DNA of 64,000 bases from a virus (taxonomy: Duplodnaviria; Caudoviricetes): positions 192,001 through 256,000 of the IMG/VR virus record IMGVR_UViG_3300048861_000178; one strand, 5' to 3'. A program made the translations under genes and the position numbers. This document shows positions 6,562-63,036 of this stretch, piece after piece. Below the pieces are notes generated by a model that worked only from the letters and a program-made list of their open reading frames with translations, was not told where the DNA came from and made no database searches. The number at the start of each line of letters is the position of its first letter. Position 1 is the first letter of the stretch.

Positions 6562-6620
6562 CGGCATAAACGCCCAGGAGACCTTCGGGTCTCCTGGGCT
6601 CTATGACCGTCTTTTTTTTT
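6562..6620. terminator. Bidirectional terminator-like element, CGGCATAA-hairpin-CTATGACCG plus T-tract
   Basis: 12-bp stem GCCCAGGAGACC-TTCG-GGTCTCCTGGGC between convergent genes. Confidence 0.85.
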
Positions 6621-6624
6621 GGTC

Positions 6625-9489
6625 TTAGACTTGCGGTTCTGCTGCGCCTTGGTCTTCCGGCTTGTCATCTTCCGGATTCAAAGGTGATTCATCGGTCGTG
6701 CTGGCGGCGCCACCGAGGTTAAAGGGATCGTCACCGCCCCCTGCACCACCCATGTCGAAACCACCACCGCCAAAGTCATCACTGCCACCCAAGCCACCCA
6801 GACCGGTGTCGCCACCCATGGACATGTCACCGCCCATGCTACCGCCACCCATGTCACCCATCCCGCCTCCCATCCCGCCGCTGTTCTGGTCGGTCGCCTG
6901 ACGCTTGGCGTTGTTCAGCCCCGCTGCATCCTTGATCGGCTTCATGCCATTCATGAAGTGGTCCATGCTCAGGATCATGTTGCTGGTGTGATCCTGGAAC
7001 GCATCCCACAGGTTGAGCTTCGGCTTGCCGTCATCATCCAGCGTGTTCAGATCGGAGAGCTCCGGCAGCACGCCATTCTCACCCATCCACTTACGCATGA
7101 AGTAGGCCTTGGCCATCTCCTTGAGCGAACCCGCGTAGTTGCTGAGGTCGCCCGTGGTGTCGGACGTGAGGAAGTTCGTCGAGATGTAGTAGTCGAGGCC
7201 CTGATCAAGCGACTTCGAGTACGTATCCATGGCCGCCAGTTGGTTCTCCAGCGTCACGCTGTTCGGCTTCGGCAGGCTGACTTCCAGACCCATCACAAAG
7301 TCGTACAGGAGCTGCTGAATCACCAGTTCCTTCGGCTGACCACCCAAGTGCGACCGATATGTCGGATCGTCCTTATGGGCCTCGTCTTGCTTCTTCAACC
7401 GCTCCAGCAGCTTATCGGCGCTCGCCTCCAGAATCGCCCGCAGATCCCGAATGAGCTCTTCATCATTCATCATGACCTTACGCACGTGATCTGCCAGTTG
7501 TGGCTCGATCACTTCCTGAATGTTCATCACTCGCTTGGACAAGAGGATGTTGTTAGTCAGGACCGAAGTCGCGAACTCCGCTTCGAAGGCCGCATCAACG
7601 GACTGCGGGGTGAGACCCAGGCCCATGATCGAGCGCTTGCGCAGATCATCGTCGAGCTCCGTGTCGGGCTTCACGTAGCTGGTGTTCTTTTCCCCAAACT
7701 CCACCGTCATGTCCGGGAGTCCAGGATGGCCTTCCGGGACGAACTCAAAGCCCGCCCGCTGCACCCAGTCCACGATATCCATCGGCGAGTTGGTGCCCAC
7801 CGGGAACGCTTGCTGACGGCTGCGTAGGATTTCATGCACCACGCGCTCAAAGGTCTTCTGCGGGTCAGGATCGTGCTCATCCATCTTGATCTTGACCTCA
7901 GTGCGACCCATCGAGTTCTTGACGGCCGCCATCACGTTGGCAAACAAGAGCATCGAGCGCAGCGAGTTGATGATCTTCAGGTCATCGAGCATTGACTTAC
8001 CCATGCCGTCGCCGTTATAGCGCAGCGCGAAGTACGTCATGAACTCGATCGGCATGAAGAGCAGCTGCGTGTGTTGCTTGGCGAGTGCCCGTGCAAACAT
8101 GATACGGTACACTTCTTCACGCTTAGCCAGAGCCACGCCGTTGCCGTAGACACCATTACGCAGGCGAGCGAGCAGATCCTGCTCGATCATTTCACCGTAC
8201 ACACGCGCCGAATAATCCAGGTGGGCGTTATTGGTGTTATCGAACCCCTGCATGTTCGCCTTGACCTTTTGCAGCATGGCCGAAGGGAACGAACCGCCAG
8301 AGTTCATCCGGGCGTTCAATTGCTGGTAGTAGTCGATGTCGGCAATGCGCTGAATCGGGTGACCGTCTTCATCGATCAAGATGAAGAAGCCCACGTGCTG
8401 CTCAACGTTACCTGGCACGAACACTGGAATGACTGCTTCCGAGGGCAAGTGCATGATGAGCGGCGCACCGACAGTCCGGCGATTGAGCTGCTCCTGGGTT
8501 TTCAGCGTCGTGATCGGCTTGTACTGGTAGTTACGATCCCGATAGATCATCCCAGCCAGTTCCCGATCATTGGGCTTGTGCTGCTGGACCTGATGCGTCG
8601 GGCTCGGCACGCCATACGCTTCGGTCGCGGTCTTCATGGTACGCGACAGACCGTTGCGCGCGCCCAGCAGTTCCATCACGCGGTTTTCGCGGATCTTCTG
8701 GTACAGCATCGGCACCTTGAGCAACGACGGGTTATCGGTGACCGTCGTATAGGTTTCCTGCGCGATGTTATCGAACGCTTTCTCGAGCGTCACATCGGTG
8801 CGATAGGTCGTGTCGAACTTGAACGTCTCGAGCGACTCCATCGAGAGCGCCGCACCCTGACGCACTTGCGTGGGCTTGGTCTTGGTGACCGGACCCAGCA
8901 GACCGAGGGGCTTGATCCGACCATCATTGTGAAAGTGCTCGACGAGCGACTCCATCGAGACTTTGCGATTGGAGTTGATCACATCGTCAATCGAATTCTC
9001 GGGAATCACCGCGACCGGATACGAGCCCGTCTCAGCCAGAACATCACGCAGCATCCGAGGAAGGACCTGCTTTATTTTATAGTTCTGTTCAAAATGGACG
9101 CGAACACGATTGGTCATTGCCGTGTTCACTTCCGGCGGGACCAGGTTCTCCGGAGCTTTATATGTCAGCTCCACGGTCATCATGTCTTTCGGTGAAAGTA
9201 CCGAGGACACGAGGATCTGAATCGCCAGTTCGAGTTCAGGTAACGTCTGGAGCACGGTCTGTGCATCCGAGATGTTTTGAACCGTATTATCCGAGACGTT
9301 CTTCAATGCCTGGATCGACGGATTGTCCGTCGTCATGTTTCCAGAGCTGTCGTACCGGGGAGGCGTTTTGCCATGGACCATCTTGCTGATGGTGGCGGCC
9401 ATGCCTGGGTCTTGACGAACCAGGGACATCGCCGAATAGCGTTTGCCACTGCCAGCAAGCGCAATGGCTTCCTTCAACGCTTTGGACAT
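6625..9489 (-). CDS. Portal protein (phiKZ gp129-like)
   Basis: 954 aa; resembles the phiKZ-family portal (ILVSSVLSPKDM, LPSEAVIPV...GFFILIDEDG, FATS...NILLSKRV); divergent from a large structural gene as in relatives. Confidence 0.75.
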   Translation of the reverse strand: MSKALKEAIALAGSGKRYSAMSLVRQDPGMAATISKMVHGKTPPRYDSSGNMTTDNPSIQALKNVSDNTVQNISDAQTVLQTLPELELAIQILVSSVLSPKDMMTVELTYKAPENLVPPEVNTAMTNRVRVHFEQNYKIKQVLPRMLRDVLAETGSYPVAVIPENSIDDVINSNRKVSMESLVEHFHNDGRIKPLGLLGPVTKTKPTQVRQGAALSMESLETFKFDTTYRTDVTLEKAFDNIAQETYTTVTDNPSLLKVPMLYQKIRENRVMELLGARNGLSRTMKTATEAYGVPSPTHQVQQHKPNDRELAGMIYRDRNYQYKPITTLKTQEQLNRRTVGAPLIMHLPSEAVIPVFVPGNVEQHVGFFILIDEDGHPIQRIADIDYYQQLNARMNSGGSFPSAMLQKVKANMQGFDNTNNAHLDYSARVYGEMIEQDLLARLRNGVYGNGVALAKREEVYRIMFARALAKQHTQLLFMPIEFMTYFALRYNGDGMGKSMLDDLKIINSLRSMLLFANVMAAVKNSMGRTEVKIKMDEHDPDPQKTFERVVHEILRSRQQAFPVGTNSPMDIVDWVQRAGFEFVPEGHPGLPDMTVEFGEKNTSYVKPDTELDDDLRKRSIMGLGLTPQSVDAAFEAEFATSVLTNNILLSKRVMNIQEVIEPQLADHVRKVMMNDEELIRDLRAILEASADKLLERLKKQDEAHKDDPTYRSHLGGQPKELVIQQLLYDFVMGLEVSLPKPNSVTLENQLAAMDTYSKSLDQGLDYYISTNFLTSDTTGDLSNYAGSLKEMAKAYFMRKWMGENGVLPELSDLNTLDDDGKPKLNLWDAFQDHTSNMILSMDHFMNGMKPIKDAAGLNNAKRQATDQNSGGMGGGMGDMGGGSMGGDMSMGGDTGLGGLGGSDDFGGGGFDMGGAGGGDDPFNLGGAASTTDESPLNPEDDKPEDQGAAEPQV

Positions 9490-9557
9490 TTGAACCTCAA
9501 CGAAAGATAGCCCTTGAAAAACAAGGACTGCATGTTATTGAAATAAGGGGCGCCGTT

Positions 9558-14015: not shown

Positions 14016-14348
14016 ATGAAAAAGACAATCCTGGCTGTGCTGGTGACAGCAAGCCTGGCGGGGTGTGCACAAACCTGTGTACCGGAACTGAAGAACCTGT
14101 ACGTCGCGCCACCTGACGCGCTGCTCGTGAAGGCCACGGTGGAAGCCCCACCTGATCAAACGAGCTACGGCACGCTCTCCTGGAAGCAGCGCAGCGACCT
14201 GTGGGAATCGAAGTACGATGCGCAAACGGCCAACGTCGCCACGGCCAATCGTCACATCGGTTCCTTGCAGGATTGGAAAACGCAGAACAACGCCGTCTTT
14301 GCGGCATCTCCGCAAGGGGCAAGCAATGTTAGTGGAACGCGTCCTTAA
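14016..14348 (+). CDS. Putative outer-membrane spanin lipoprotein (Rz1-like)
   Basis: Signal peptide II MKKTILAVLVTASLAG|C; Pro-rich YVAPPDALL...APP; helical C-terminus ending LQDWK. Confidence 0.65.
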   Translation: MKKTILAVLVTASLAGCAQTCVPELKNLYVAPPDALLVKATVEAPPDQTSYGTLSWKQRSDLWESKYDAQTANVATANRHIGSLQDWKTQNNAVFAASPQGASNVSGTRP

Positions 14349-14845: not shown

Positions 14846-16729
14846 ATGCGCCGTCAACTTCAACGACTGGCTCTGGAGAATGCGTTTATCAACGTGAATC
14901 AACCGCCTTCGCACGAAGACGCACTGATCATGTCGTTTCGCAAAGAGTTCGGTCACCTGTATCCGACGCCGCCGGTAGTGATTGAACACAATCCGATCGG
15001 TCGCCCGTATCTGGCCATGGAAGAAATCGCCAATGGTCAGCCGGTGAACGAAATCGAGCACACGATCTACGCGCGCGTGGTGAACTTCTCTGACCTCGAG
15101 CAAGCCGCGTCGAAGGAAAACCAGGAACAGTGGGAAATCCGGATCGAGAAGACCGAGAAGATCGCCGGGAAGGGTTCCATGCGCGTGCGCAAGACCTGGC
15201 TCGATGGCAAGGAAGAGGAAGCGACGTTCGTCCGTACCTCGAAGGTTGTGATGAACGAAAAGGGTGACAAGATCGAGTTGCCCATGCCGTCCAATAAGGA
15301 CGAGTTCACCATCTTCAAGTTCCTCGCGGCCCAAGGCATGCGCAAGGTGCGCTACACCTTCCCGATTATCGGCACGAACCTGAAGTGGGAAATCGACATG
15401 TTCCCCAAGCCTGATGGCGACGGGTTCTTCGAGTGGTGCAAGATCGATCTGGAAGTGCAGAACCGCGAACAGCCGATTCCTGAGTTTCCGATTCCGCTGG
15501 AAGATGTGATTCTGCCCGAAGGCTACGGTCGCACTGGGGGCGGGGAAGTGCAGAACCAGATCACCCAGCTCTACGATCAGTTCTTCCTGCTCAAGAACCA
15601 GTTCTTGCCGCGCGGTGATGTAGCTCCGGCAGTGGGTTCGGCCAGTGCAGGCGACCAGGGTCTCGCGACTGCGGTTCCGGCCTTGCCTAACGATACGGCT
15701 GAACCGCAACAGCTCCAAGCGCCTAGCAGTGCGAGCGATGAAGCTCCGGCTCCGGCCGTGCAAGACATCGCACCTCAGCCTGCTGCTTCGACGGCGCAAA
15801 ACCCCCAGCAACAACTGGATCAGGCGCTCAATCAAGGCATTCCGGATAACCTGCAAGTGCAACCCGAACCGCCCGTGCAAGAACCCGTGACGGCGGAACT
15901 GCCGCAACAGGCTCAAGCCGAAGAACCGGCGCAAGTCGATTCGACGGTGGCGCAGACACCTGCACCGAACGAAACTCCGGCGCAAACTGAACAGCCCGAA
16001 GGCGAAGCCGCTCAAGCCGAGGGTACGCCGCTGGAGCAGCCTGAGCAACCGGATGTGAGCTCGCCTAGCGACACCCCGGACGAACTGGCCACCAAGCCGC
16101 AAGCCGGGAATGAACCGCCTGTTGATGACAGTGACTCCACGGCCTCTACGCCTGAAGAGCAACAGGAGCAACAGGAAGAACAGACCCAGGAGCAAACCGA
16201 AGATAAAGTCGAAGCCATTCAGCAACAGAAGAAGGCCGAAGCCGAATCCCAAGGTAAGCTCGATCCGACCGAAGATGGCAAGGTGCCGGTGGACCTCATC
16301 GATAACCCCGCTGGGGACCCGTCGATGATGAAGCCCGATGACCAAGACAATCCGGAAGGGGCAGGCGAAGAAACCGCCAATGGCGGCAACGTCACAGGTG
16401 CAACTGATGGTACTAACCCGGATGAGAATGGTGCAGGCACGGGCGATGGTCTGGGTGGTGAACTGGCAGATGGGGCAGGTACCACGGGCACGGATGACGA
16501 CGCACTGGATTTGACCAGCGCGGATGCGACCGACCCGGCCAGTGAAGAAGGTACGGTACCGACTTCTACCTCAGGGACCGCTGAAGGCAACAATGGTTCG
16601 GGCGAAGACATCGACCAAGCCAATGGTGAACAAGCGGGAGTAGCGAACGTGCCGTCCAAGGCCGAGACCGACGAGATTCCGCCGGAGAACGATCAGGACA
16701 AGCGTAAGCTCGAAGCCCAAACGCAGTAA
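14846..16729 (+). CDS. CYTH (triphosphate tunnel metalloenzyme)-like domain protein with long acidic low-complexity tail; probable head protein
   Basis: GGAG RBS; NEIEH, QEQWE, RVRK, RKVRYTF, WEIDMF, IDLEV; N-terminal ALE/AME motifs; tail rich in E/D/Q/P/A/G/T. Confidence 0.65.
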   Translation: MRRQLQRLALENAFINVNQPPSHEDALIMSFRKEFGHLYPTPPVVIEHNPIGRPYLAMEEIANGQPVNEIEHTIYARVVNFSDLEQAASKENQEQWEIRIEKTEKIAGKGSMRVRKTWLDGKEEEATFVRTSKVVMNEKGDKIELPMPSNKDEFTIFKFLAAQGMRKVRYTFPIIGTNLKWEIDMFPKPDGDGFFEWCKIDLEVQNREQPIPEFPIPLEDVILPEGYGRTGGGEVQNQITQLYDQFFLLKNQFLPRGDVAPAVGSASAGDQGLATAVPALPNDTAEPQQLQAPSSASDEAPAPAVQDIAPQPAASTAQNPQQQLDQALNQGIPDNLQVQPEPPVQEPVTAELPQQAQAEEPAQVDSTVAQTPAPNETPAQTEQPEGEAAQAEGTPLEQPEQPDVSSPSDTPDELATKPQAGNEPPVDDSDSTASTPEEQQEQQEEQTQEQTEDKVEAIQQQKKAEAESQGKLDPTEDGKVPVDLIDNPAGDPSMMKPDDQDNPEGAGEETANGGNVTGATDGTNPDENGAGTGDGLGGELADGAGTTGTDDDALDLTSADATDPASEEGTVPTSTSGTAEGNNGSGEDIDQANGEQAGVANVPSKAETDEIPPENDQDKRKLEAQTQ

Positions 16730-16772
16730 ATGCAGTAAACGCGCTGAGAGCCTCTCAGAGGCGCTGTCATAG

Positions 16773-16831
16773 CGGCATAAGGCCTTTCCCTACCCTCATG
16801 GTTGCGAGGGGTGGGAAAGGCCTCTATGACG
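16773..16831. terminator. Bidirectional element CGGCATAA-hairpin-CTATGACG
   Basis: GGCCTTTCCC...GGGAAAGGCC stem between convergent genes; no U-tract. Confidence 0.75.
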
Positions 16832-16845
16832 TTAACTGAAGGCTT

Positions 16846-17295
16846 CTAAGGTATCGTTACGACGGTCAGTTGCACTTGGCCGCTATAACAGAGCGATTCA
16901 GGCGTGGCTGCTAACACGACAGGCTCGGTGAGATCCGCGTACTGGGTATTCACGACGTCAGCTGCGGTGAGTTGCAACTGATAGGCTTGATTGATCGCCG
17001 GGAGCAGATCGACGATGTTAAACGGCAAGGCTGCGACCGTCAACGACACTGCAGGCAACAACACTTCATCCAGCGGCAAGCGTCGATACAGAATCTGCTG
17101 GCTACCTTCAAAGCGGTTATCCTCGATCTGGTCAGCGGTGACCGTAATCAAGGTATCCGGACCACACGAAGCGGCATTGCCGATCGCAGTCGGCGTGCCA
17201 AACTCCATGTAGTCCTGTTGCAACCAGAGGCCGTTACTGCGCCAGATCAGATCCAGCAGAATCTGTGCAGCGGGTTGGTTCAGATTAAGCTTCAT
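16846..17295 (-). CDS. Small tail-associated protein
   Basis: Last gene of the fibre operon; LYRRL and SLCYSG motifs resemble phiKZ-family tail-associated domains. Confidence 0.5.
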   Translation of the reverse strand: MKLNLNQPAAQILLDLIWRSNGLWLQQDYMEFGTPTAIGNAASCGPDTLITVTADQIEDNRFEGSQQILYRRLPLDEVLLPAVSLTVAALPFNIVDLLPAINQAYQLQLTAADVVNTQYADLTEPVVLAATPESLCYSGQVQLTVVTIP

Positions 17296-19293: not shown

Positions 19294-19322
19294 TTGTTTA
19301 CTAACTCCTAATCTTGTCCGAA

Positions 19323-44917: not shown

Positions 44918-44936
44918 GCTTGAATGCCTGTTTTAA

Positions 44937-44974: not shown

Positions 44975-44978
44975 TCGA

Positions 44979-47090: not shown

Positions 47091-47101
47091 GGCTGCTCCT
47101 A

Positions 47102-50100: not shown

Positions 50101-53100
50101 TAGTTGTAGACTTCGCCATCGATGTCTTTTGGACTCTTGATAGCTTTGTCATTGACCGCCGAGTGATAGCCGCCTGCGCGCATGGTCTTCGCGTCCAGTG
50201 CCTTACGCAGTCGCTTCGGATGATCCTTATCGAACACGTACACATCTTGCGGACCATTGGCATAACCCAGTGCGCCTTTGATGGCCAGCTCGCCGAGTTT
50301 AGCGATCGCTTTGTAGCCCGCCAGAGGGCCGCCCAAGAGGTTGCCACCGAGGAAGCTACCGAGCTTGCTGGCGACCTTGACACCGGCACCCAGACCCCTT
50401 AGCGCCTTCTTAACGAGCCCTTCTCGCACATAGGCGGTCGAGGCCTGCTCCTCGGTCATGACAATGCCTGAGGCATCGGCCACAGCACCCTGAATATCGC
50501 GCCAGGTCCTGACGGGTTTGCCCGTCTTGACATCGAAGTACTCACCAGCCTTCAGACGCGCCGCATAGAGCAGGACCTTACGCGGACCCGTTTCTTCCGA
50601 ATACACGTCCTTAAAGCCGCGGGCCTTGTCAAGCACCTTGCCTGCCAGGCCGGTTGCCATACCGCCCACCGCTTTCGCCGTGCCGAAGAGACCACCGAAG
50701 CTACTGCCGACCAGCCAGTTACCCAGCTTGCCTGCATTCTTCATGCCACCCCATGCACCCGAGGCGAGGCTCTTGACGCCGTCCTTGATGGACTTGTTCC
50801 ACCAGCGTACCTTGCCACCCGTACCTGCAGCACCTGCCGGGATCGACCCATCTGCAGCGTTACCCACCACCATCACGGGCAGTGCGTCGGCAAAGCGCTC
50901 CTGGATGGCCTTGATCCCGTCGCTAATGGACCCTACGCCTTCGGAGAGTTTCTCGAGCAGCGTCTCGATGTGGTTCTTGGCATTCTCATGCAGTGCGCGT
51001 GCACCCGAGGCCGTCCGGTTAGCAAACTCACGCGCATGATCTCGTGCATTGCTAAAGAATCCGCCAGCGCGTTGCGTACCCGCAGCCTGCAAACCTGCCG
51101 CACCTTGTACTGCACTGTGCGCCGTTGCCCCCATGGCAGAGACGGTTTGCTCCACCAACGCATTGACTTGCTGAACCGGTACTCCCAGCTTTTGCAAGTA
51201 GTTCGCCAACTGCTGACGATACTTGGGCGTGCCGACCGCGGCGTTCGGTTGCGGGCTATAGGCACCCGCATTGGCAGTCGTCGGTACAAAGCTCGGCGTA
51301 ATCAGACCAGGCGTTGCAAAGGACGGGACGGGACCGGCCGCCAATTGAGACAGGGCTTGATGCACCCCACCGCGATTTGCGCGACCAATACTGCCTGCAT
51401 TGCCACGCCGCCGACGACGACGCGGACCCACAGCAGCTGCAGCCGCCCCAGCTTGAGCGGGACGAAAACCATTCGCGGTACTGCCCGTGGCGGGGTTAAA
51501 GTCCTTACCGTAATAGTAGTCAAAGAACTGCTCGAGCTTCACGCCATCTTCGTCATCATTAAGCAGGCCCGCTTCATTCAAGAAGTCGTTCATGCCCAGA
51601 TTGGAAAAATGCTGAACCTTTTCACGCGAGGCGGACGCGTACTGACCAAACGCATTGTACGCATTGGCAAACGAGTGCTTGCGCTCGTTATCGTGATCAT
51701 TGCGGAAGTACGTCTTGAACAGATCGGCAAACGCATCAGCGTGCGGTGCGGCATCGCCATCATAACGGCGCCGGTTACCGAGCACTTCTTCGCCACCCAG
51801 TCGACCCTTGACGTTATTGCGCAAGAGTTGACTGCCCAGAATCTTCTTCTGTTCCGGGGTGAGGGTTTTACCTGTCTTGGTGGTGACTTCATCGATCAGG
51901 CTATCGATCGACTCGGTAGTCCACTTGCGCTCGTTGTCTTTGACCAGGGACTTAAACGCGTTCGTATGCACATTGCTTTGCGTGTCGAACTTGTTCTTGG
52001 TGTAGTCATAGTGCGTCATCTCGACGTTCGGGTCCCCGGTGCGGGTGACTTGCAACTCACGCAGAATCCGAGCGAGGTAGCCAGGGATGATCTCGTTCAA
52101 CGACTTCGCCGACTGACGGCTAAAGTAGGACGGCTCACCCATGCTCTCGACCGTGTCCTTTTGCAGACCGGTTTGCATCTTTTGCGACTGCTTGACATTC
52201 ATCTTCAAGAAGCGCACCAGCCCATCGGTCAAGCCGCCGTTCTCCCCCTTCGAGGAGCGAGCCCATTCACCGAGCATCTGCGGGATATTCTCCGCGCCGT
52301 ATTGCAGCTTGTTACCGAACTTCTTCACGCCCGGCATCTTCGCCAGGTGCGGGGCCATCTTCTTGGCAATCCACTGACCAATGAAGTCAGTCCCCAGCGC
52401 TCCACCCAGCATCCCGGCAGAATGGAACGGATCGGTTTGCATGCCCATCGCCTTGGCCATGTCATCGGCGTCGAGCACCCCGTTAGCGATGTCGAGCCCG
52501 GTGCGACCAATTCCCAAGCCATTCTTCACACCCCGCAAGGCATTCTTCTGCAAGTTGCCCGTGAGGTTATTCAGGAACTCCTGGCCGCGACCGAGGATCG
52601 TGCCACCAATCAGTTTCATGGCTTGTTGCTTGGCCATGTCTTTAAAGGTGTCCGAGGCCTTGAGCTTGGCTTGCTCGGGCAGCGCCGTATTGTGCACCAC
52701 ACTTTGCAGGAGCAGACGCATCTCTGCGTTGCTGCGCTTGGCTTCTTCCAGCGCGTCTACAGCAACGAAGTAATGGCGGTACTGGAGCTCGAGCGACTTG
52801 CGATGGTAGTTAGCGGTAACGTTGGACTGGTAATCCACAAGCTGAGCAATGCCAACGCGCAGCGAGTCCATCTGCTTAAGCTTGTCCCGATGGCGGACTT
52901 GTTCGAGGCCTTCACGGAGTCGATCCTTCGTGTCTGATTCAGTGGTTTGTTTGTATTGGAGTTCGGACTGCACCTGAGCGAAGCCTGCGAGCATCGCACT
53001 GATCTCGGCTTCGCGAGGATCATAGTTCGAGCTACCCGGCTTGGCGTCGGCCGTCTCGGTCCAGTCCTTCACTTGCTTCTTGAGCTTGTCCGGCATCGCC

Positions 53101-53444
53101 TGCTCCACCTTCGGGAGCAAGCGTGCCGTCGTGCGCTTCAAGTCGTTCATGAACGGCCGGATTTCCTTGGTCGTATCATCGTATAGACTTTTTATCGATC
53201 CGAACGATTTCTCGGCGAGATCATACGCGGAGCCGTATCCCCGAGGCAGGGCTTTCTCAATGACTGCCTTGACAAAGGTAGAATTCTTAGCCGACAGGCT
53301 GATGCCTTCTTTCAGGCCCGCAGCGACTTTGGTAACCGGCTTGCGGTTATCCTTCGGCGGCTTGAGATCGAAATCGAAATCAGGCACGTCAAGGTTCTTG
53401 TCGAACTGGAAATCGTTCAACGTGAATTTTTGTTGCTTGGCCAT
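47136..53444 (-). CDS. Giant tail protein / tape-measure-like (phiKZ gp181-like) with C-terminal glycoside hydrolase family 19 domain
   Basis: ~2100 aa; KSLELQYR, EIIPGYL motifs; Gly/Ala-rich and TM-like segments; AMFMAQMDHESGGF..LSENLNY, YRGRG..QLTG..NY, TKAINGG.NGL.DR. Confidence 0.8.
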   Translation of the reverse strand: MAKQQKFTLNDFQFDKNLDVPDFDFDLKPPKDNRKPVTKVAAGLKEGISLSAKNSTFVKAVIEKALPRGYGSAYDLAEKSFGSIKSLYDDTTKEIRPFMNDLKRTTARLLPKVEQAMPDKLKKQVKDWTETADAKPGSSNYDPREAEISAMLAGFAQVQSELQYKQTTESDTKDRLREGLEQVRHRDKLKQMDSLRVGIAQLVDYQSNVTANYHRKSLELQYRHYFVAVDALEEAKRSNAEMRLLLQSVVHNTALPEQAKLKASDTFKDMAKQQAMKLIGGTILGRGQEFLNNLTGNLQKNALRGVKNGLGIGRTGLDIANGVLDADDMAKAMGMQTDPFHSAGMLGGALGTDFIGQWIAKKMAPHLAKMPGVKKFGNKLQYGAENIPQMLGEWARSSKGENGGLTDGLVRFLKMNVKQSQKMQTGLQKDTVESMGEPSYFSRQSAKSLNEIIPGYLARILRELQVTRTGDPNVEMTHYDYTKNKFDTQSNVHTNAFKSLVKDNERKWTTESIDSLIDEVTTKTGKTLTPEQKKILGSQLLRNNVKGRLGGEEVLGNRRRYDGDAAPHADAFADLFKTYFRNDHDNERKHSFANAYNAFGQYASASREKVQHFSNLGMNDFLNEAGLLNDDEDGVKLEQFFDYYYGKDFNPATGSTANGFRPAQAGAAAAAVGPRRRRRRGNAGSIGRANRGGVHQALSQLAAGPVPSFATPGLITPSFVPTTANAGAYSPQPNAAVGTPKYRQQLANYLQKLGVPVQQVNALVEQTVSAMGATAHSAVQGAAGLQAAGTQRAGGFFSNARDHAREFANRTASGARALHENAKNHIETLLEKLSEGVGSISDGIKAIQERFADALPVMVVGNAADGSIPAGAAGTGGKVRWWNKSIKDGVKSLASGAWGGMKNAGKLGNWLVGSSFGGLFGTAKAVGGMATGLAGKVLDKARGFKDVYSEETGPRKVLLYAARLKAGEYFDVKTGKPVRTWRDIQGAVADASGIVMTEEQASTAYVREGLVKKALRGLGAGVKVASKLGSFLGGNLLGGPLAGYKAIAKLGELAIKGALGYANGPQDVYVFDKDHPKRLRKALDAKTMRAGGYHSAVNDKAIKSPKDIDGEVYNYKGVTVLDEEEFKRGLYDKNGNPLKHGVARILSGATKILGGGFGALKWLAGGVNQGIGHAFGLGKGMFSGLGALFGKTGIFFGGGKKLMSAVEEIRDLLKDRLPERHIIRKGSIEDQHKSRKEQLEEEWKKHLGQNGQGDDGQKKGGILSLLSGLFKRKKKNDDEDDSKGGLADGIESAVEQTIADKILGKIPGGKLLRKIPGLGRLFGKGGAGAAAGAAENIVGGAAKQGLGSRIMGGLKWGKGLGAGVALTGASALANATGHDTIGKGLGYAGDAATGWSLASGAAGLLGVEGGALGLAGAAGGALLTGLGAVLASPVLLPALGIAAAGAAVYGGYRLLSRNKLDALSKIRYAQYGWKPEDDGNVHKVFALENALMPGVTYVGGQAQIDPKKVDIKSAVEGLGVDLQDKDQVQNFATWYVRRFKPVFITHLTILNNIKKGTALSDANDKLSSAEKKTFLQGIRMPAEPYNSMVSPIPGEKQLSAGADDVKAVMDEVQAANDKEVEKDKDKKTNDKAVKAKDEAKHDAATKGDNKPEPSWMDNLKSGISNAWDKTKQFAGNAWDATKSAASSVGSAASSLISGAGDALKSGYQAAKGAAGKIGATLTASASAIKGALIAAMKTAGMSDPTEQAMFMAQMDHESGGFKSLSENLNYRPSVLASLFKSHFNGEGDAANVAAGGPQAIANRIYGGRMGNTAPDDGWTYRGRGVVQLTGKANYAKYGKMTGLDLVNNPDLASDPANAAKIALAYWKDRVSSAAAKAGDVLSVTKAINGGTNGLSDRQAKFQAYLGQAQQGQLGGKPDPNAKAGEAGTQVASTGGAPATGGAGGTGAAAATGAAGGIIKVADQTPGPAPALKSTPTTAPDAGPVDNGASAAVSALPDSINSQTAAAMGGFQNRSKDLAAQSQAQSQDLAKTLGPVSDVLKQSLDVQKQMLTALQQLVGFAGKQGSNSQANSKTPTGTLSPDAMQRKTPQPMPSAPVSMSKMA

Positions 53445-53519: not shown

Positions 53520-55148
53520 ATGCCGCAAAAATCCGACGTGCCATTTAACGTGAGTATCCTTGAACTCACGGAGAAAAAGCTCGTGGGGGTGAAGCCTGTT
53601 ACGAAACAGGACATCTTCGATGGCGCGACCCACAACTTCGATGAAGGCGGACTCTTCTCGGTGAGCATCTTCGGCAAAGTCGGGGATGAGCGCCGGAGTC
53701 AGCGCTTTTCGTTTATCGACATCAAGGCCCCGGTGTTCCACCCGGTGATCTATCGGGCACTCGCCCAGCTCAAGCGTCTCTATGCCGCGATTATGGCAGG
53801 CACTGAGTACGCCGTATGGAATCCGGAAACCAAAGACTTTGAGCGCAGCAATTCGATTACCGGTCGCACCGGCTACGCGTTCTTTCTGGAATACTGGAAG
53901 CTCATCGAATTCGGTGACACCAAGAGTGTGACACGGGAAATGAATGTGTCGCTCTTGAAGAAGTTCCAGAGCGTGGCCCTCACGAGCAAAGTGATCGTGA
54001 TGCCTGCGGGGATGCGCGACGTGGAGCTCGATGGTGGTCGGGTGCAGATGGATGAAATCAACACCTTTTACCGCAAGCTGCTGGCGATCTCCAACACCAT
54101 CTCCGAAGCGTCGGTGAAGACTGCGCCGGAAGTGATCAACACCGCGCGCTATAACTTGCAGCTCACCTTTAACCAGTTGTACGACATGCTGGAAAATATG
54201 GTGCAGGGCAAGAAGAAGCTGCTGATGGGCAAGTGGGCCAGTCGACGGATTCAGGACGGTACGCGTAACGTGATTACCGCAATGGATACGTCCAGTCCTT
54301 ATCTGGGCGCGCCCGATGCAGTGGGCTTTAACAACACGGTGATCGGCCTGTACCAGATGTTGAAAGCGTCGCGCCCGATTGCGATGTACAACATTCGCAA
54401 CGGCTTTCTCTCCAAAGTGTTCTTTGAAGTGGGTCGGCCAGTCAAGCTGATTGACAAGAAGACGCTGCGCCCAGTCGAAGTCACCCTCAAGACGCAAAGC
54501 TACGATCGCTGGATGACCAACGAAGGCATCGAGAAGGTGATCACGTCATTTGGGGACGAGGACCTGCGCCATAAGGCGCTGGAGATTGAAGGCTATTACC
54601 TGGGTCTGATCTACAAGGGCCCGGACGGGACCTACAAGATCTTCCAGGACATTGGTGATGTGCCCATTGAGCGCAGTCGCAAAGATGTGACGCCACTCAC
54701 GTTTTGTGAGCTACTCTATCTGTCGACCTTCCAGGCCATCAACGGCTTGCCGCTCTTTGTGACGCGTTACCCGGTGACCGGGGTGGGCTCGATCTATCCG
54801 TCGCTCGCCTATGTGAAGACGACGATTAAGGCTGAGGTCCGCAAGGAGCTCGATGAGCAGTGGCAACTACGACTGGATGCGCCGGTGGCGTATCAGTTCC
54901 CAATTACGGGCGGTGCGTTTATCAACTCACTGGTGCCGCACTCGGCCAAGCTTGGCAAACTGGGCGCGGACTTTGACGGCGATACCGCCTCGGGTAACGT
55001 CACGTATTCGGACGAATCCATCGCGGAAGTCAAGGCACACCTGAGTAAGAAGCGCGCCTATGTCGGTACCGACGGCTCCTTCATGTCCAGTATCGAAGTC
55101 TCGACCGTGTCCTTGGTGTTCCACAATCTGACAGGTTACGATTCATGA
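53520..55148 (+). CDS. rpoC: Virion RNA polymerase beta-prime subunit, catalytic part (phiKZ gp180-like)
   Basis: GLFS..IFG, GTRNVIT, TRYP, LGADFDGD catalytic motif. Confidence 0.9.
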   Translation: MPQKSDVPFNVSILELTEKKLVGVKPVTKQDIFDGATHNFDEGGLFSVSIFGKVGDERRSQRFSFIDIKAPVFHPVIYRALAQLKRLYAAIMAGTEYAVWNPETKDFERSNSITGRTGYAFFLEYWKLIEFGDTKSVTREMNVSLLKKFQSVALTSKVIVMPAGMRDVELDGGRVQMDEINTFYRKLLAISNTISEASVKTAPEVINTARYNLQLTFNQLYDMLENMVQGKKKLLMGKWASRRIQDGTRNVITAMDTSSPYLGAPDAVGFNNTVIGLYQMLKASRPIAMYNIRNGFLSKVFFEVGRPVKLIDKKTLRPVEVTLKTQSYDRWMTNEGIEKVITSFGDEDLRHKALEIEGYYLGLIYKGPDGTYKIFQDIGDVPIERSRKDVTPLTFCELLYLSTFQAINGLPLFVTRYPVTGVGSIYPSLAYVKTTIKAEVRKELDEQWQLRLDAPVAYQFPITGGAFINSLVPHSAKLGKLGADFDGDTASGNVTYSDESIAEVKAHLSKKRAYVGTDGSFMSSIEVSTVSLVFHNLTGYDS

Positions 55149-58100
55149 TTTTCTACAACAACTTCTTTCGACGCTTTGGCGTGCGTACGGCTTCGCAGTT
55201 GACGAACCCGCCCATGCCCAAGCTCGATTTGCTGGAGCTGCCGCGTGAGTCGATCTTTCACTACGTGAGTGAAAGCGCGGTGGACATCGGCCCGCGTTCG
55301 GATGAATTTCTCTTTCGGCATGTGGCGCGGCCCATTCCGATCATGCACCAGATCGAGTTGCTCTCGGACAAGGGCATGCCGCGGCGCGTGGCGGTACCGG
55401 TGGAAACGGAGATTCGCAAGTACCACCAGCATCATCGTCGGTTTCGTCGGCAGATTAACCTGAACGCAGCACTGCGTGATGTGAATGTCCCGTTCGTGAT
55501 GAACTACGGCTTTCTGGCGGGACTCTACCGTTATCAGCGTTCGATGTTTGCTGAGTACAACCGCTGGTACAATATTGCGGCCACGGTCTGGAAGCGCATT
55601 GGCGATCTGGCGAAAGACTCGACCCGCCACCAGTTCATCGAGATTCGACTGCCGAAGATTCTGCCGGGTTTGACCGATCTGCGCATTGCCTCGGAGTCGC
55701 TTATCGAAGGCGACGTGCTGAGCTACGCCAGTGAAGGCATCAAGCTGGCATTGGAGTCCGTCGATCAGGAGTATCTGGACCTGGTGCAAGCCTCGCCCCA
55801 CTATGTGGATAGCGTCTCGATGGAGGCGATGAACCAGCGTACGCTTAAGGTGTTCCATACACCGGAAGCCCTGATGCTGCTCGAGCTGTGGAAGTGGGCC
55901 GGTGACGCGCGTCATAGCTCGTTGATTGCCAACGTCAATGATGAGCATCTGGATCGCGTGAATCTGATCTTCACGGAATCGGGTCGCTGGTTCGTGGTGA
56001 ACCTAGGTGTCATCAATCGCTGGCGTGTGGCAACCGAGGAAGAGCTCGCGGCGAACCCGCAAGCGAACCAGAAGGGATTGTCGCCGGTGCAGATGCAACG
56101 GCGCTTGCTGCGCATGTCGATGTCGCTCTTTCAAGTGCGCACTGATGTGGGTCCGGAAGCTGAAGACGCGGCGCAAGACGAAGAGTCGATCCAGGCAGCG
56201 GATGCGCAAGACGCGAACGCCGATGGCGTGCCAGAAGCGCAGCATTACGACCCTGATGAACAGTTCGATGCAGACAAGGGCGACGAGGAAGACGAGAGTC
56301 TCTTGCCGACCTTCAAGCAAACGGGCAGTCTTCCCAAGGTCGATCCGATTACCGGCGAGGCGATTCTCAAGCCCACGGCGGTGAAGACGAATGCGGCCAC
56401 GAGCACCCCGACCGATGAATTCACGCCTACTGAAAAGGCCGAGGACTTTGTCTTTGACCCGACTGAAGACGCGCAGATTGAAAAGGATCTGCAAGAGCTC
56501 GATAAGCTCAGTCGTCAAGCAGTCGCAGTGGGTGCGGGTGAGATTCCGCATCCGGTGGAAGTGGTTGAGCTCAATGACGTCCCGCAACCCGAAGACGGCG
56601 TGATTGCGCTACTCAATCGGCTGGCGGATGACGGCATGGTGAGTGCGGCTGAGTATCGGCGCTTCACGCAACTGGCTCAGTCCCCCAAGAACCTGCCTGC
56701 GCCCAAGGGCGAAGGTAATCTGCACGACTTCTCGCAAGTGCAGCCGCACGAAACCAAGATGGATAAGTCACCCTCCATCAAGGACATTCCGACCGTGCTG
56801 GATAAGACGATGCTCAAGTCGTCGCTGCTGGAGTTCGATCAGCGCTACATCGAAACGCTGCTGGAAAAGGACGTGGCAGGGATGGTCCTGGCGTTGCAAA
56901 ACGCTGGGATCTGCGTGACGTCCTACGAGCGCGAAGAAGTGGATGACGTGATGGGTTCGTACGTGATGTACCACGTGCGGATTGTGCCGGTCCAAGGCAC
57001 GGCTTCGACGCTGCACTTTAAGCTGCCGCTGTTGCAAGACGATGGCACTTACATGGCTAACGGCACACGCTATCGCATCCGTAAGCAAAAGGGTGACATG
57101 CCGATCCGTAAGATCGCACCGGACCGCGTGGCCCTCACCTCTTACTACGGTAAGGTGTTTGTGTCGCGTAGCGAAAAGCGGGTGAATGACCGGGCACAGT
57201 GGTTGCGTAATGCGATCATGGCGATGGGGCTGGATAACGAGAACACCACGGTGGTGAATCTGCATCCGGGTGACGTGTTCGATAACCTCTTTGAAGCCCC
57301 GCGTCTGTATTCCTCGATGTCGATGGGCTTTCGCGGTTTCACGGTGGATTCGGCCCATTTCCCGAAGAAGCTTAACTTCCTCTTTGATCACTCCAAGCGC
57401 GACAAGCTCTACGGCCCGGACGTGGTCAAGGCGCTCGAAGTAGGTGGCCGTCTGGTGTGTGGTCAAGCCGAAGGGGGCGAGTACATCGTCATGGATCGCG
57501 AGGGGGACTTCTTCCTGGCGACGCTTAAAGACGGTGTCAGTCTGGTGACGGGTGACGCTATCCCGCCGCTTGAGGAGTTGCTCGATCTGGAAGCCAAGAA
57601 AGCCCCGGTGGAGTTTGCGGAGCTCAAGGTACTGGGTCGTACGATTCCGCTGGCCGTGGTGCTGGGTTACCAGATGGGCTTGGAAAAGCTCATGCGGGCG
57701 TTGAAGGTGACGGCACGGCGTGTGAACGCGGGTCAGCGTCTGAACCTGCAAGACAACGAGTACGCGATTGCGTTCTCGGATGAGACGTTGATCTTCCCGC
57801 GCGATAACACCTTCGCAGCGATGATTCTCGGGGGCTTTAACGAGTTCCACCGGCAGATCCGTAACTACAGCGTGTTCGAGTTTGATCGACGCGGTGTCTA
57901 TCTGAATATCCTCGAAGGCAATGGACGTTCGGAGCGGTATCTGCGTGAGATCGATTTGATGTACCAGATGTTTATCGATCCGATCACACGGGAAATCTTG
58001 CAGGGCATGAAAGAGCCGTTGACCTTCCAGGGTCTCTTGGTGCGCTCGGTGGAGATGCTACTCTCGGACACCCACCCTGATGAGCTCGATCCGAAGTACA

Positions 58101-59683
58101 TGCGGATCAAGGGCTACGAGCGCATGGCCGGTGCCGTGTATGCTGAACTGATTCGGGCGATTCGGATTCATAACGGACGGCCGGGCAAGAACAAGCATCC
58201 GATCGACCTGAACCCGTACGCAGTCTGGACGGCGATTCAGACCGACCCGGCCAAGAACCAGGTGTCGGACATCAACCCGGTGGAAAACCTGAAGGACGTG
58301 GAAGCAGTCACATTCTCGGGCACAGGGGGTCGAGGCAGCCGCTCGATGACGAAGCGCACGCGCCAGTACCATCGCAACGACATGGGGACTATCTCTGAGT
58401 CGACGAAGGACAGCTCGGACGTGGCCATCAACACCTACCTGTCAGCGGACCCGCAGTTTAATTCGCTGCGTGGGACGTCCAATCCGTACGAGATTGGGGT
58501 GACGGGTGCGACTGCTCTGCTCTCAACTGCCGCGCTCTTGTCACCGGGCTCGGATCGCGATGATGCGAAGCGGGTGAACTTCGTGGGGATTCAGCATTCT
58601 CACGGGATTGCCTGCGCGGGTTACACGCAAGCCTCGGTGCGCACTGGGTATGAACAGGTGCTCGCTCACCGGACCTCGGACCTCTACGCTTACACGGCCA
58701 AGAAGGACGGCAAGGTGATCAGTGTCTCGGACACCGGCATGGTGATCGAGTACGCTGATGGTACGCGCAAGGGAATCGAGCTGGGGCGTCGCTATGGTAA
58801 CGCAGCGGGTCTTACCGTTGCGCATGAAGTGGTGGCAGACGTGCAGGAAGGACAGACGTTTAAGGCAGGCGACCTCTTGTGTCACAACACGGGATTCTTC
58901 GAGCGTGATACGCTCAATCCGAATCAGGTGGTGTGGAAGGCTGGGACGATTGTCAAGACGGTTCTGTTGGAGTCGACCGATACCCTGGAAGACTCCTCGG
59001 CGATTAGCAAACGGGTGTCGGGTCTCTTGACCACGAAGACCACCAAGGTGCGTAAGATCGTGGTGAACTTCGATCAAGCCGTGCATCGGTTGGTGAAAAC
59101 CGGCCAGCGCGTGGGCAGCGAGGACATCTTATGCATAATCGAGGACGCGGTCACCGCGAACAATCACCTCTTTGATGAGGAGTCGCTGGACACCTTGCGC
59201 AATCTGTCTGCTCAGGTGCCGCTCTCCAAGACCAAAGGCGTGGTCGAGCGCATTGAAGTCTTCTATCACGGGGACAAAGAGGACATGTCGGAGTCGCTGC
59301 GGCAACTGACGAACATGTCGGATCGTGAGATGGCGAAGCGCCATAAGTCCGCTGGACGAAAGGGCTTCACGGGAAGTACCGACGAGGGCTTCCGGGTCGA
59401 TGGAGAACCACTGGCGTTGGATACAGTGGCGATTCAGATCTACATCACGGCCGATGTGAGCGCAGGGGTCGGTGACAAGGGTGTGTTTGCCAACCAGATG
59501 AAGACGGTGTTCGGTAAGGTGATGGAGAACGAACTGAAGACGGAGTCGGGCACAGTCATCGACTGCGTATTCGGTTACAAGAGTGTCTACGATCGTATTG
59601 TGAATAGCCCTGCGATCATTGGCACCACCACTACCCTGCTGGACGTGATTGCCAAACGAGCAGTCGCTGCCTACAAGAGCTAA
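55145..59683 (+). CDS. rpoB: Virion RNA polymerase beta subunit, N-terminal/major part (phiKZ gp178-like)
   Basis: 1512 aa; D.PIRKI, G.GGR, ISE.T.DS, DDAKR, EDSSAIS, GDK...NQ.K.V; ATGA overlap with the beta-prime gene. Confidence 0.9.
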   Translation: MIFYNNFFRRFGVRTASQLTNPPMPKLDLLELPRESIFHYVSESAVDIGPRSDEFLFRHVARPIPIMHQIELLSDKGMPRRVAVPVETEIRKYHQHHRRFRRQINLNAALRDVNVPFVMNYGFLAGLYRYQRSMFAEYNRWYNIAATVWKRIGDLAKDSTRHQFIEIRLPKILPGLTDLRIASESLIEGDVLSYASEGIKLALESVDQEYLDLVQASPHYVDSVSMEAMNQRTLKVFHTPEALMLLELWKWAGDARHSSLIANVNDEHLDRVNLIFTESGRWFVVNLGVINRWRVATEEELAANPQANQKGLSPVQMQRRLLRMSMSLFQVRTDVGPEAEDAAQDEESIQAADAQDANADGVPEAQHYDPDEQFDADKGDEEDESLLPTFKQTGSLPKVDPITGEAILKPTAVKTNAATSTPTDEFTPTEKAEDFVFDPTEDAQIEKDLQELDKLSRQAVAVGAGEIPHPVEVVELNDVPQPEDGVIALLNRLADDGMVSAAEYRRFTQLAQSPKNLPAPKGEGNLHDFSQVQPHETKMDKSPSIKDIPTVLDKTMLKSSLLEFDQRYIETLLEKDVAGMVLALQNAGICVTSYEREEVDDVMGSYVMYHVRIVPVQGTASTLHFKLPLLQDDGTYMANGTRYRIRKQKGDMPIRKIAPDRVALTSYYGKVFVSRSEKRVNDRAQWLRNAIMAMGLDNENTTVVNLHPGDVFDNLFEAPRLYSSMSMGFRGFTVDSAHFPKKLNFLFDHSKRDKLYGPDVVKALEVGGRLVCGQAEGGEYIVMDREGDFFLATLKDGVSLVTGDAIPPLEELLDLEAKKAPVEFAELKVLGRTIPLAVVLGYQMGLEKLMRALKVTARRVNAGQRLNLQDNEYAIAFSDETLIFPRDNTFAAMILGGFNEFHRQIRNYSVFEFDRRGVYLNILEGNGRSERYLREIDLMYQMFIDPITREILQGMKEPLTFQGLLVRSVEMLLSDTHPDELDPKYMRIKGYERMAGAVYAELIRAIRIHNGRPGKNKHPIDLNPYAVWTAIQTDPAKNQVSDINPVENLKDVEAVTFSGTGGRGSRSMTKRTRQYHRNDMGTISESTKDSSDVAINTYLSADPQFNSLRGTSNPYEIGVTGATALLSTAALLSPGSDRDDAKRVNFVGIQHSHGIACAGYTQASVRTGYEQVLAHRTSDLYAYTAKKDGKVISVSDTGMVIEYADGTRKGIELGRRYGNAAGLTVAHEVVADVQEGQTFKAGDLLCHNTGFFERDTLNPNQVVWKAGTIVKTVLLESTDTLEDSSAISKRVSGLLTTKTTKVRKIVVNFDQAVHRLVKTGQRVGSEDILCIIEDAVTANNHLFDEESLDTLRNLSAQVPLSKTKGVVERIEVFYHGDKEDMSESLRQLTNMSDREMAKRHKSAGRKGFTGSTDEGFRVDGEPLALDTVAIQIYITADVSAGVGDKGVFANQMKTVFGKVMENELKTESGTVIDCVFGYKSVYDRIVNSPAIIGTTTTLLDVIAKRAVAAYKS

Positions 59684-59775: not shown

Positions 59776-59973
59776 ATGCAATTGCAAGATTCGCATCGGA
59801 CCGTCGCAACACTTGGCAATGCCGCTGAGTTGGTTGCGGCTATCGTCCAGGGAGTCGTCGGTAACGACGTAGCGGACACCATCGACGGGTCGCCCCTCAC
59901 GCGCGGCACGATTTTCAATCTGGCTCAGCTCAAGTTCCAAGAGAGCGCGGGCAAAGTTCTGGGAGCCGAATAA
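59776..59973 (+). CDS. Small hypothetical protein
   Basis: AGGA RBS; ends 1 nt before the next gene. Confidence 0.65.
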   Translation: MQLQDSHRTVATLGNAAELVAAIVQGVVGNDVADTIDGSPLTRGTIFNLAQLKFQESAGKVLGAE

Positions 59974-62170: not shown

Positions 62171-62190
62171 GTCAACAAGTCGAGAACACA

Positions 62191-62991
62191 ATGGGCAATC
62201 AAATTCGATTCGCGTGTACGGCACTCGCGGCATCGAACAAGAGCGGGGTGTTGAAGAAAGACGACAACGGCTACTACGAACTAGTGGTCGGGGCGTTGAA
62301 CGTCTTCAACTCAATTGGTCAGTACTACGTGTACGATCAAGCCCGTGATCTGTTCGAGGGCTCGAGCACCTTCATGCGACGCGTGAAGCGCGGCGTGCTG
62401 CGCGGTGAGCTGGGTCATCCCAAGCCACTGCCTGGCATGAGTGAAGAGCAGTTTGCACAGCGCGTGATGTCGATCTATGAAGACAACGTGTGCTGCCACC
62501 ACAAGGAGATCTACCTGGATTTCGATCGGGTGAAAGATGACCACGGTAACCCCGTGATCGCTATCATCTCGCGCGTCTATCCGTCGGGTCCCCATGGCGA
62601 GCAGCTGCGTCGATCGCTGGACAATCCGAACGAGAACGTCTGCTTCTCGATTCGGGCGTTCACCGATGACTTCATGGACCGTGGCACCTGCAAGCGCATT
62701 TTGCGCACCATCGTCACCTGGGACCAAGTATTGGAACCCGGACTGGCGGCCGCCGAGAAGTTCAAGGCACCGGCACTGGAAGGAGCGCACGTGGGCGCGA
62801 GCGATCGCAACACGCTTGACTTTGACCACCTCTTTAGCCGGGGTCAGATCGAGCGCGGGATCAAGCGCAACTCGATGTACGGGGTGGCTCAGGAATCAGC
62901 CATCTTGACGGGGCAGGAACTGTTCTCAGCCATGGGTTGGGACACGACTGAAACCGAAGGGGCGAAGAAGCCCGCCTTCTTGCAGTGGTGA
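62191..62991 (+). CDS. Prohead (head maturation) serine protease (phiKZ gp175-like)
   Basis: LRGELGHP (His), NVCFSIR (Ser), TWDQVLEPG; C-terminal ALE/AQE self-cleavage-type sites. Confidence 0.85.
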   Translation: MGNQIRFACTALAASNKSGVLKKDDNGYYELVVGALNVFNSIGQYYVYDQARDLFEGSSTFMRRVKRGVLRGELGHPKPLPGMSEEQFAQRVMSIYEDNVCCHHKEIYLDFDRVKDDHGNPVIAIISRVYPSGPHGEQLRRSLDNPNENVCFSIRAFTDDFMDRGTCKRILRTIVTWDQVLEPGLAAAEKFKAPALEGAHVGASDRNTLDFDHLFSRGQIERGIKRNSMYGVAQESAILTGQELFSAMGWDTTETEGAKKPAFLQW

Positions 62992-63005
62992 CACCACCGT
63001 AAGTG

Positions 63006-63036
63006 AGCCCCAGGGGAAACCCTGGGGTTTATGCCG
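63006..63036 (+). terminator. Hairpin followed by TTATGCCG
   Basis: GCCCCAGGG-GAAA-CCCTGGGGT-TTATGCCG after the protease stop. Confidence 0.75.

Follow-up and report, generated by a model that had tools for sequence, protein, structure and literature searches.

The 64,000-nucleotide (nt) stretch of viral DNA analyzed here, referred to as the window, comprises bases 192001–256000 of the 315,190-bp virus record IMGVR_UViG_3300048861_000178, which has a GC content of 56%. Gene ends in this DNA are marked by a dispersed element that consists of a hairpin followed by TATG(A/C)CG, read on the strand of the gene that ends there. A first-pass annotation had described this element and had proposed that it is a termination or RNA 3′-processing signal for a phage RNA polymerase, or else a terminator coupled to a late promoter. 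The element is real, every site cited in that annotation being as described, and its copies very probably serve the phage as factor-independent transcription terminators of its own, belonging to the type known from phage phiKZ. This reading follows from the anatomy, placement, strand bias, and conservation of the element, and from the identity of its consensus with the phiKZ terminator motif. The idea of a termination signal for a phage polymerase thus gains support, whereas that of a terminator-coupled or antisense late promoter does not.

The closest named relative of the phage is Burkholderia phage FLC9 (76% DNA identity across 81% of a 20-kb query), whose gene order in the window is matched by our own gene calls. 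The window contains two adjacent genes for RNA polymerase subunits of the phiKZ type (53520–55148 and 55145–59683; PHROGs 2986 and 3148, with beta-subunit matches). Further fragments resembling Rpb2 and Rpb1 (matches to Pfam Rpb2_6 and Rpb1_2) lie in other parts of the genome, which holds two sets of split β/β′ genes. A tblastn search with the 542-residue subunit matched 313 jumbo phages, with FLC9 at 85%, Ralstonia phage FLC4-3B at 52%, and PhiPA3 and members of Phikzvirus at approximately 39%. The split multisubunit polymerase genes and the relatives found by tblastn therefore identify a phiKZ-like phage with its own multisubunit polymerases, split in both the virion and the non-virion form.

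The element was assessed by two scans of the complete record. In the first, perfect hairpins with a stem of at least 7 bp and a loop of 3 to 12 nt were collected, giving 273 after overlap removal, and the 12 nt past each arm were inspected. TATG starts 0 to 8 nt downstream of 71 of the 546 hairpin sides, compared with 6.3 sides expected from the genome-wide TATG frequency (Poisson p ~1e-48), and it ranks first among all 256 tetramers behind these hairpins. Genome-wide, perfect hairpins are not followed by the control words GTAT, CATA, and ATAC in similar excess. The commonest words behind the arms (TATG, ATGC, TGCC, GCCG, and CCGT) join to give TATGCCGT, and the k-mers found de novo behind hairpins were TATGCC, ATGCCG, and TGCCGT.

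In the second scan, every TATG(A/C/T)(C/T) was taken and the 60 nt upstream of it were folded, a copy being counted as hairpin-linked when the gap to an upstream hairpin with a folding energy of −8 kcal/mol or lower was no more than 5 nt. This yielded 113 hairpin-linked intergenic copies versus 79 in the coding fraction, which is ten-fold larger. Of the 62 copies of the word TATGCCG across the genome, 53 fall in the intergenic ~9% of the sequence, and 47 of the 53 are hairpin-linked by the same definition. Alignment of the 113 intergenic copies gave the consensus Y-T-TATG-C/A-C-G-T-T, with a gap between stem and TATG of 0, 1, 2, or 3 nt in 34, 30, 28, and 14 copies, respectively (0–3 nt in 106/113). 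Anchoring on TATG was preferred because stem ends defined by RNAfold absorbed TTAT or ATAA into the stem and thereby blurred the motif. A loose variant pattern (T(A/G)T(G/T/A)...) returned mainly noise from coding sequence and was dropped.

This consensus is that of the phiKZ terminator. Using ONT-cappable-seq, Putzeys et al. (2024, Microlife) located 133 termination sites in phiKZ and obtained the motif BCCYCCCCHWWDGGGRRGGBYTTATKYYGT, that is, a stem-loop plus YTTATKYYGT (PMC10914365), and motif A of phage 201phi2-1 is closely similar (PMC11512511). The 113 hairpin-linked copies show the same arrangement, a GC-rich stem-loop directly followed by YTTATKYYGT. The element is therefore best regarded as a local form of a published terminator class, i.e., a known signal in a new phage. 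A similar layout was seen when a Phikzvirus locus was scanned: TTATG(C/T)(C/T)GT stands behind GGGAGGGC-type stems and, where genes converge, does so on both strands. One Phikzvirus copy reads TTATGCCGTTAAAC, as does the copy at 63006–63037 of the window, and some copies are identical to a Phikzvirus copy over 12 nt (TTATGCCGTTAA).

The likeness to phiKZ extends to the location of the element just past stop codons, to the paired copies at convergent genes, and to an early promoter (TATATTAC) that often lies 30 to 50 nt downstream. There are also differences. The present genome has 56% GC compared with 37% in phiKZ, its T-rich spacer is shorter (TATG is usually preceded by 0–2 nt in place of YTT), the motif nearly always has G as its fourth base, and the CCG is stricter. 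Moreover, the 3′ arm is C/U-rich in many one-sided copies, whereas the phiKZ arm is G-rich, and here all 20 convergent junctions are occupied, as described below.

Positions of phiKZ transcript ends and start sites were taken from the bioRxiv supplement, and the ends were placed on the phiKZ sequence. At the 10 hairpin plus TAT(G/T) terminators in the first 50 kb, the RNA 3′ ends fall between −3 and +2 nt relative to base four of TAT(G/T), or 5 to 9 nt past the stem, and three TTATA variants have similar 3′-end positions. This is the geometry of intrinsic termination. It also bears on a different mechanism, in which the polymerase would read through and an endonuclease of the host or the phage would then cut the transcript within the single-stranded UAUGCCG, or the transcript would be trimmed back, its resulting 3′ end being shielded by the hairpin. 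Such processing would be compatible with the sequence specificity of the motif, which is what one would expect of a nuclease site, and 3′ ends from ONT-cappable-seq alone cannot separate termination from processing (PMC10914365). Trimming by an exonuclease, however, would end at the stem base rather than 5–9 nt beyond it, and terminators of 201phi2-1 reduce the expression of a downstream reporter when no phage infection is present, which is how an intrinsic terminator behaves (PMC11512511). The latter result comes from eight 201phi2-1 terminators, picked to span the five motifs of that phage, which terminate in a reporter assay in uninfected P. chlororaphis (PMC11512511), the phiKZ-like motif A not being confirmed among the eight assayed. 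Also, the motif is common to phages of Pseudomonas, Erwinia, Ralstonia, and Burkholderia, as would be expected if its reader belongs to the core genome of the phages, and we identified no nuclease that recognizes it. A pure RNA-processing mechanism is thus less likely than termination, and we consider it very improbable.

Junction statistics were compiled genome-wide for intergenic junctions of at least 25 nt, using our own gene calls (378 genes, obtained with a six-frame competitive score; a caller based on codon log-odds was dropped because it stretched open reading frames into shadow frames). None of the 20 convergent junctions lacks the element, and 16 have it on both strands; of the 17 divergent junctions, 3 have it. 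Among 178 tandem junctions, 58 carry it: 40 have it solely on the sense side and 8 solely on the antisense side (binomial p = 3e-6 for this contrast), while 10 are two-sided. The element thus sits downstream of the ending gene and on its strand, with overlapping pairs at convergent genes. The first-pass annotation had claimed that the orientation of the motif tracks the gene ending there and had called for a genome-wide test of this, which the ratio of 40 sense-only to 8 antisense-only junctions now provides. The presence of two signals in one palindrome at convergent genes implies that such a site works in both directions.

All copies cited from the window were recovered: two-sided copies at six of its seven convergent junctions, a one-sided copy at the seventh (40246), which is indeed confined to the minus strand, tandem copies at 43332 and 63006 (+), variants at 19323 and 47102 (−), and weaker copies at 2034 and 3875. 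These putative terminators are the following.

6561–6609, both strands: bidirectional terminator between the convergent genes 4462–6492 (+) and 6625–9489 (−); TCTATGACCG on +, GTTTATGCCG on −; 12-bp stem with a UUCG/CGAA loop, followed on + by T9 at 6612–6620.
16772–16832, both strands: bidirectional terminator between the convergent genes 14846–16729 (+) and 16846–17295 (−); CTATGACG on +, TATGCCGC on −; long, imperfect stem of −31 kcal/mol.
22593–22651, both strands: bidirectional terminator between the convergent genes 21325–22593 (+) and 22668–23654 (−); CTTATGACCG on +, TATGCCGTT on −.
27267–27304, both strands: bidirectional terminator between the convergent genes 26243–27259 (+) and 27312–28589 (−); CTATGCCG on +, TATGTCCC on −; in FLC9 both motifs are kept while stem and loop are changed.
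33595–33652, both strands: bidirectional terminator between the convergent genes 33173–33586 (+) and 33666–34493 (−); TTTATGCCG on +, AATATGACCG on −; compared with FLC9, the stem shows a compensatory change from A-T to G-C.
40245–40306, minus strand only: one-sided terminator at a convergent junction; long stem of −37 kcal/mol, then GTTTATGCCGG.
43332–43359, plus strand: unidirectional terminator after gene 42596–43309; 8-bp stem with a UUCG loop, then TATGCCCC, with a T-run ~12 nt further on; compensatory G-C to C-G change relative to FLC9.
44936–44975, both strands: bidirectional terminator between the convergent genes 43391–44917 (+) and 44979–47090 (−); CTATGCCGTCG on +, TATGACGTT on −.
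63006–63037, plus strand: unidirectional terminator after gene 62191–62991; TTTATGCCGTTAAA, with an early-promoter-like box (TATATTAC) ~45 nt downstream.
19322–19364, minus strand: variant terminator after gene 19384–21213 (−); hairpin, then ATTGTGTCG (TTGTGTCG); the variant is kept in FLC9.
47101–47132, minus strand: variant terminator after the gene 47136–53444 (−), which encodes 2102 residues; UUCG-loop hairpin, then TTTATTTCGT (TTTATTTCG); the motif fits phiKZ YTTATKYYGT with K = T.
3874–3910, plus strand: weak variant after gene 3381–3860; hairpin, then ACTTATAACG (TTATAACG); resembles phiKZ terminator T006 (TTTATAACG).
~2037–2071, plus strand: weak copy after gene 1607–2011; imperfect hairpin, then GTCTTATGAGCC (TTATGAGC).

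In phiKZ, TATG is the hallmark of late promoters, and its G serves as +1 (PMC4666361); the element could accordingly be read as a terminator-coupled late promoter. The hairpin would then stop the upstream transcript, and TATG would be the start site of the non-virion polymerase, giving antisense starts at convergent junctions. Two observations fit: the elements at tandem junctions lie 26 to 184 nt upstream of the next gene, and TATG and CATA are avoided in coding sequence. With observed/expected ratios of 0.67 and 0.49 (maximal-order Markov model), no other tetramers are as depleted once words that contain a stop are disregarded, and codon usage could contribute to this depletion. It suggests that TATG alone is probably a signal here, and it is what one would expect if TATG alone acted as a polymerase signal on either strand. 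The placement of the element argues otherwise. The motif occupies every convergent junction, where its TATG faces only the antisense strand of a gene and there is only antisense RNA to make, while 14 of the 17 divergent junctions, where promoters must exist, lack it.

The phiKZ start sites lead to the same view. Among those checked (P001–P004 and P008–P066), none falls on a hairpin-linked TATG. The phiKZ late promoter P119L, which reads TATGTAGA, has neither an upstream hairpin nor CCG after TATG, and the CCGT extension is missing from the late-promoter logo as described (PMC4666361). What the two signals have in common is the tetranucleotide itself and the fact that phiKZ RNA 3′ ends lie near the same G that serves as promoter +1. 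Where phiKZ start sites do follow terminators, they use a second TATG 5 or 22 nt further on (P049 and P054) or a middle or early promoter 26 to 47 nt further on (P012, P016, P017, and P023). The present genome contains some 16 early-promoter-like boxes (GATTCAAAGATTT, 6–8 nt, TATATTAC(T)), located 30 to 120 nt upstream of plus-strand genes, which closely resemble the early promoters of phiKZ (…AGAT(C/T)TATATTAC…). Nine of these lie no more than 100 nt downstream of an element, and many elements have a box 30 to 85 nt downstream, as in phiKZ; in the window, the boxes are at 63048–63090 and 40790–40815. This order, with a terminator first and a separate promoter behind it, together with the result for convergent junctions, leaves the promoter reading unsupported, and we regard it as improbable.

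Two divergent junctions of the window, 21214–21324 and 29910–30020, stand out because they are near-identical to FLC9 despite an overall identity of ~76%. Both blocks contain an A/T-rich stretch that ends in a minus-strand TATG without a hairpin (near 21292 and 29998), 79 to 89 nt upstream of a minus-strand gene. These stretches are candidate late or middle promoters.

Canonical intrinsic terminators carry a U-tract directly after the hairpin, and the element deviates from them in this respect. The sense sides of perfect intergenic hairpins comprise 56 with TATG, 9 with a T-run, 2 with a variant motif, and 34 with neither, meaning that classic hairpin plus T-run terminators are a minority in this genome (9 versus 56). 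A run of four or more T within 10 nt of the stem occurs in only 1 of the 56 sense copies, which agrees with the earlier description of the element as usually lacking a U-tract. In 39 of the 56 there is no T4 within 30 nt, and in 54 only two to four T are found between the stem end and TAT (inclusive). Features shared with canonical intrinsic terminators are the GC-rich hairpin, the stable tetraloop, and the bidirectional use at convergent genes, as well as, in phiKZ, release 5–9 nt past the stem; the lack of a U-tract and the conserved non-U TATGCCG at or beyond the release point set the element apart. Another known signal, the class II pause/termination signal of T7 RNA polymerase, is sequence-specific and independent of a hairpin. 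It resembles the element in being a short conserved DNA word that is read by a phage polymerase and contributes to stopping, and it differs in that T7 polymerase is a single-subunit enzyme, no hairpin is needed, and the sequence is unrelated.

Longer T-runs do occur further downstream. A run of five or more T is displaced to 8–30 nt past the stem, after the motif, in 12 of 56 elements, including those with runs at 6610–6620 (T9) and 43362–43375 of the window and at 22187, 133815, and 172472 of the genome. The run at 6610–6620 is kept in seven uncultured relatives, down to 50% protein identity.

The hairpins themselves had been described as stems of unrelated sequence, which holds only in part. 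Sequences do differ between copies, whereas their composition is alike (GGGAGGC/GCCTCCC and CCCTGGGG types) and most are capped by UUCG, UACG, or GNRA tetraloops. Among the 40 sense-only copies, the sense-strand loop is UUCG in 13 and UACG in 6, with GNRA types also represented, and none of the loops listed for these copies is the complementary CGAA or CGTA. Stable RNA tetraloops on the sense strand indicate that the hairpin forms in the transcript, rather than as a DNA cruciform. A count of G-U versus A-C pairs (66 versus 0) was not relied on, since the folding program cannot pair A with C.

Comparison with relatives shows which parts of the element are kept. When intergenic junctions were mapped onto FLC9, 15 junction sides proved to carry the element in both genomes, one of the 15 being a false positive that stems from coding sequence overlooked by the gene caller; 3 sides have it only in the present phage and 4 only in FLC9. 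The stems are often wholly different from those of FLC9, or compensatorily changed as at 33595–33652 and 43332–43359, with TATG(C/A)C unchanged. The junction 3′ of the virion-protein gene 6625–9489 could be followed through seven uncultured relatives (L019–L025; 50–98% protein identity). The sites orthologous to 6561–6609 carry both motifs and different stems: five relatives differ from this phage in the stem, and four further stem sequences were found, three unrelated to that of this phage and one with its outer bases, each forming a perfect 10- to 11-bp hairpin (10 to 12 bp across all the hairpins compared). All seven relatives have ...GTCATA(A/G)... and TCTATG(C/A)(C/T)GTC as the two flanks of the hairpin, and in each of them the stop codon is followed by an identical A-run. 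Replacement of stems while hairpin and motif persist points to selection for “a hairpin” plus “this word,” not for the sequence of the stem.

The same data bear on the idea that the element acts at the DNA level, as a selfish palindrome, i.e., a repeat akin to repetitive extragenic palindromic (REP) sequences or miniature inverted-repeat transposable elements (MITEs), a cruciform, or a replication or packaging signal, that merely accumulates between genes. The elements are indeed palindromic and dispersed, and stems have been swapped between relatives whose adjacent protein is ~97–98% identical, which could reflect recombination between copies. REP- or MITE-like copies would share the palindrome itself, whereas here the stems differ among copies and between orthologous sites, and only the oriented 8- to 10-nt motif is common. 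The motif strand follows the ending gene (40 versus 8), the sense-strand tetraloops are of stable RNA types, the same sites are occupied in FLC9, and Rfam gave no match within the window. Hence, an origin as a DNA-level repeat appears extremely improbable.

The stem swap is seen in four of the relatives (L019, L020, L023, and L024, at ~4400–4440 in each). Compared with window positions 6572–6599, these have a wholly different stem between near-identical flanks, next to a protein that is ~97–98% identical. The pattern suggests that stems may be exchanged, perhaps through recombination between copies via the motif they share, and do not simply diverge through point mutations.

Within the wider family, the word TTATGYYGT is unevenly spread, with enrichment in PhiPA3 (46 versus 16 in the control) and Ea35-70 (18 versus 6). 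Ralstonia phage FLC4-3B has the terminator word at lower density, and in Burkholderia phage FLC6 (Chiangmaivirus) it is barely visible.

Several observations weigh against the view that these elements are terminators of the phiKZ type, or fit it poorly. TTATGYYGT is not enriched in SPN3US, Vibrio phage sm033, or PBS1, although these phages have such polymerases; the lineages of these phages and those of FLC4-3B and FLC6 may use a different terminator signal. Ten tandem junctions are two-sided and eight carry the element on the antisense side only, which makes sense only given antisense transcription. Approximately eight intergenic matches are expected by chance at the loose threshold, covering part of the antisense and divergent cases; several antisense-side copies are nevertheless perfect matches, some of them paired with an ordinary hairpin plus T-run on the sense side (genome 73897 and 191418). 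A few copies have a T-run between the hairpin and TATGCCG, with gaps of 9 to 13 nt (genome 71367, 84859, 281310, and 285759). Release at such a T-run would precede the motif, which hints that TATGCCG may be a separable module, partly independent of the release site. At some sites, a conserved T-run lies 6 to 10 nt after the motif, e.g., at 6612–6620. The junction counts depend on home-made gene calls, and in this phage and in FLC9 the element is known from sequence, whereas that of phiKZ comes from transcript mapping.

With these points taken into account, termination remains our preferred reading, and we infer that RNA 3′ ends lie at these sites in this phage too. In the mechanism we propose, the nascent RNA would fold into the GC-rich, tetraloop-capped hairpin, leaving the polymerase on a short and weak U/A-rich hybrid (YUUAU) and facing G and then CCG. 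The RNA would be released at about that G, 5 to 9 nt past the stem, so that the short TTAT would replace the usual U-tract. Multisubunit polymerases tend to pause where the transcript ends in a pyrimidine and the base to be added next is G, and TAT|G with GC-rich DNA (CCG) ahead would fit this rule. Since GCCGT lies at or beyond the release point, it would probably be read by the polymerase as DNA and not as RNA. The same element ends early-type units and virion genes, which suggests that the virion and the non-virion phage polymerases probably both respond to it.

A more speculative extension concerns the TATG shared with late promoters. The non-virion polymerase binds non-template TATG in a promoter pocket (PMC12809450), and it is conceivable, though on balance doubtful, that this same pocket (in a lobe of the β-like subunit) reads the terminator TATG in the same register, with G at the active site. 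During elongation, the polymerase would capture the non-template TATG and pause. The positions of phiKZ 3′ ends at the promoter +1 base G and the avoidance of TATG on both gene strands are consistent with such a shared pocket. The string “TATG” is absent from the main text of the terminator study (PMC10914365), and the papers cited here draw no link between the TATG of terminators and that of late promoters. If the idea were true, TATG would signal “start” when the DNA is bare but “pause and release” with a nascent hairpin just behind it, and the element would be a phage counterpart to the sigma-dependent pauses at −10-like sequences.

Some observations on the gene content of the window were made along the way. 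Two regions that the caller left as intergenic, 36886–37369 and 59776–59973, are clearly coding, as shown by in-frame conservation with FLC9 gp53- and gp39-like genes, and a false “element” at 36886 is a product of such a missed coding region. A small open reading frame at 14017–14348 (+), missed by the second gene call and conserved in FLC9, begins with MKKTILAVLVTASLAGC, a lipoprotein signal with a lipobox; its predicted product may be an outer-membrane spanin-like lysis protein.

Returning to the terminators, the phiKZ word persists with almost every letter unchanged in a genome whose GC content is 20 points higher and in a phage of a different host. Such conservation argues that the phage polymerases read the word, and not merely a generic hairpin plus U-tract. 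The near-absence of U-tracts leaves the contribution of TATGCCG unusually exposed, which makes these elements good templates for studying termination by sigma-less polymerases. The motif also offers a ready rule for locating the ends of transcription units in FLC9-like jumbo phages of Burkholderia and soil, in which nearly all genes are otherwise annotated as “hypothetical protein.”

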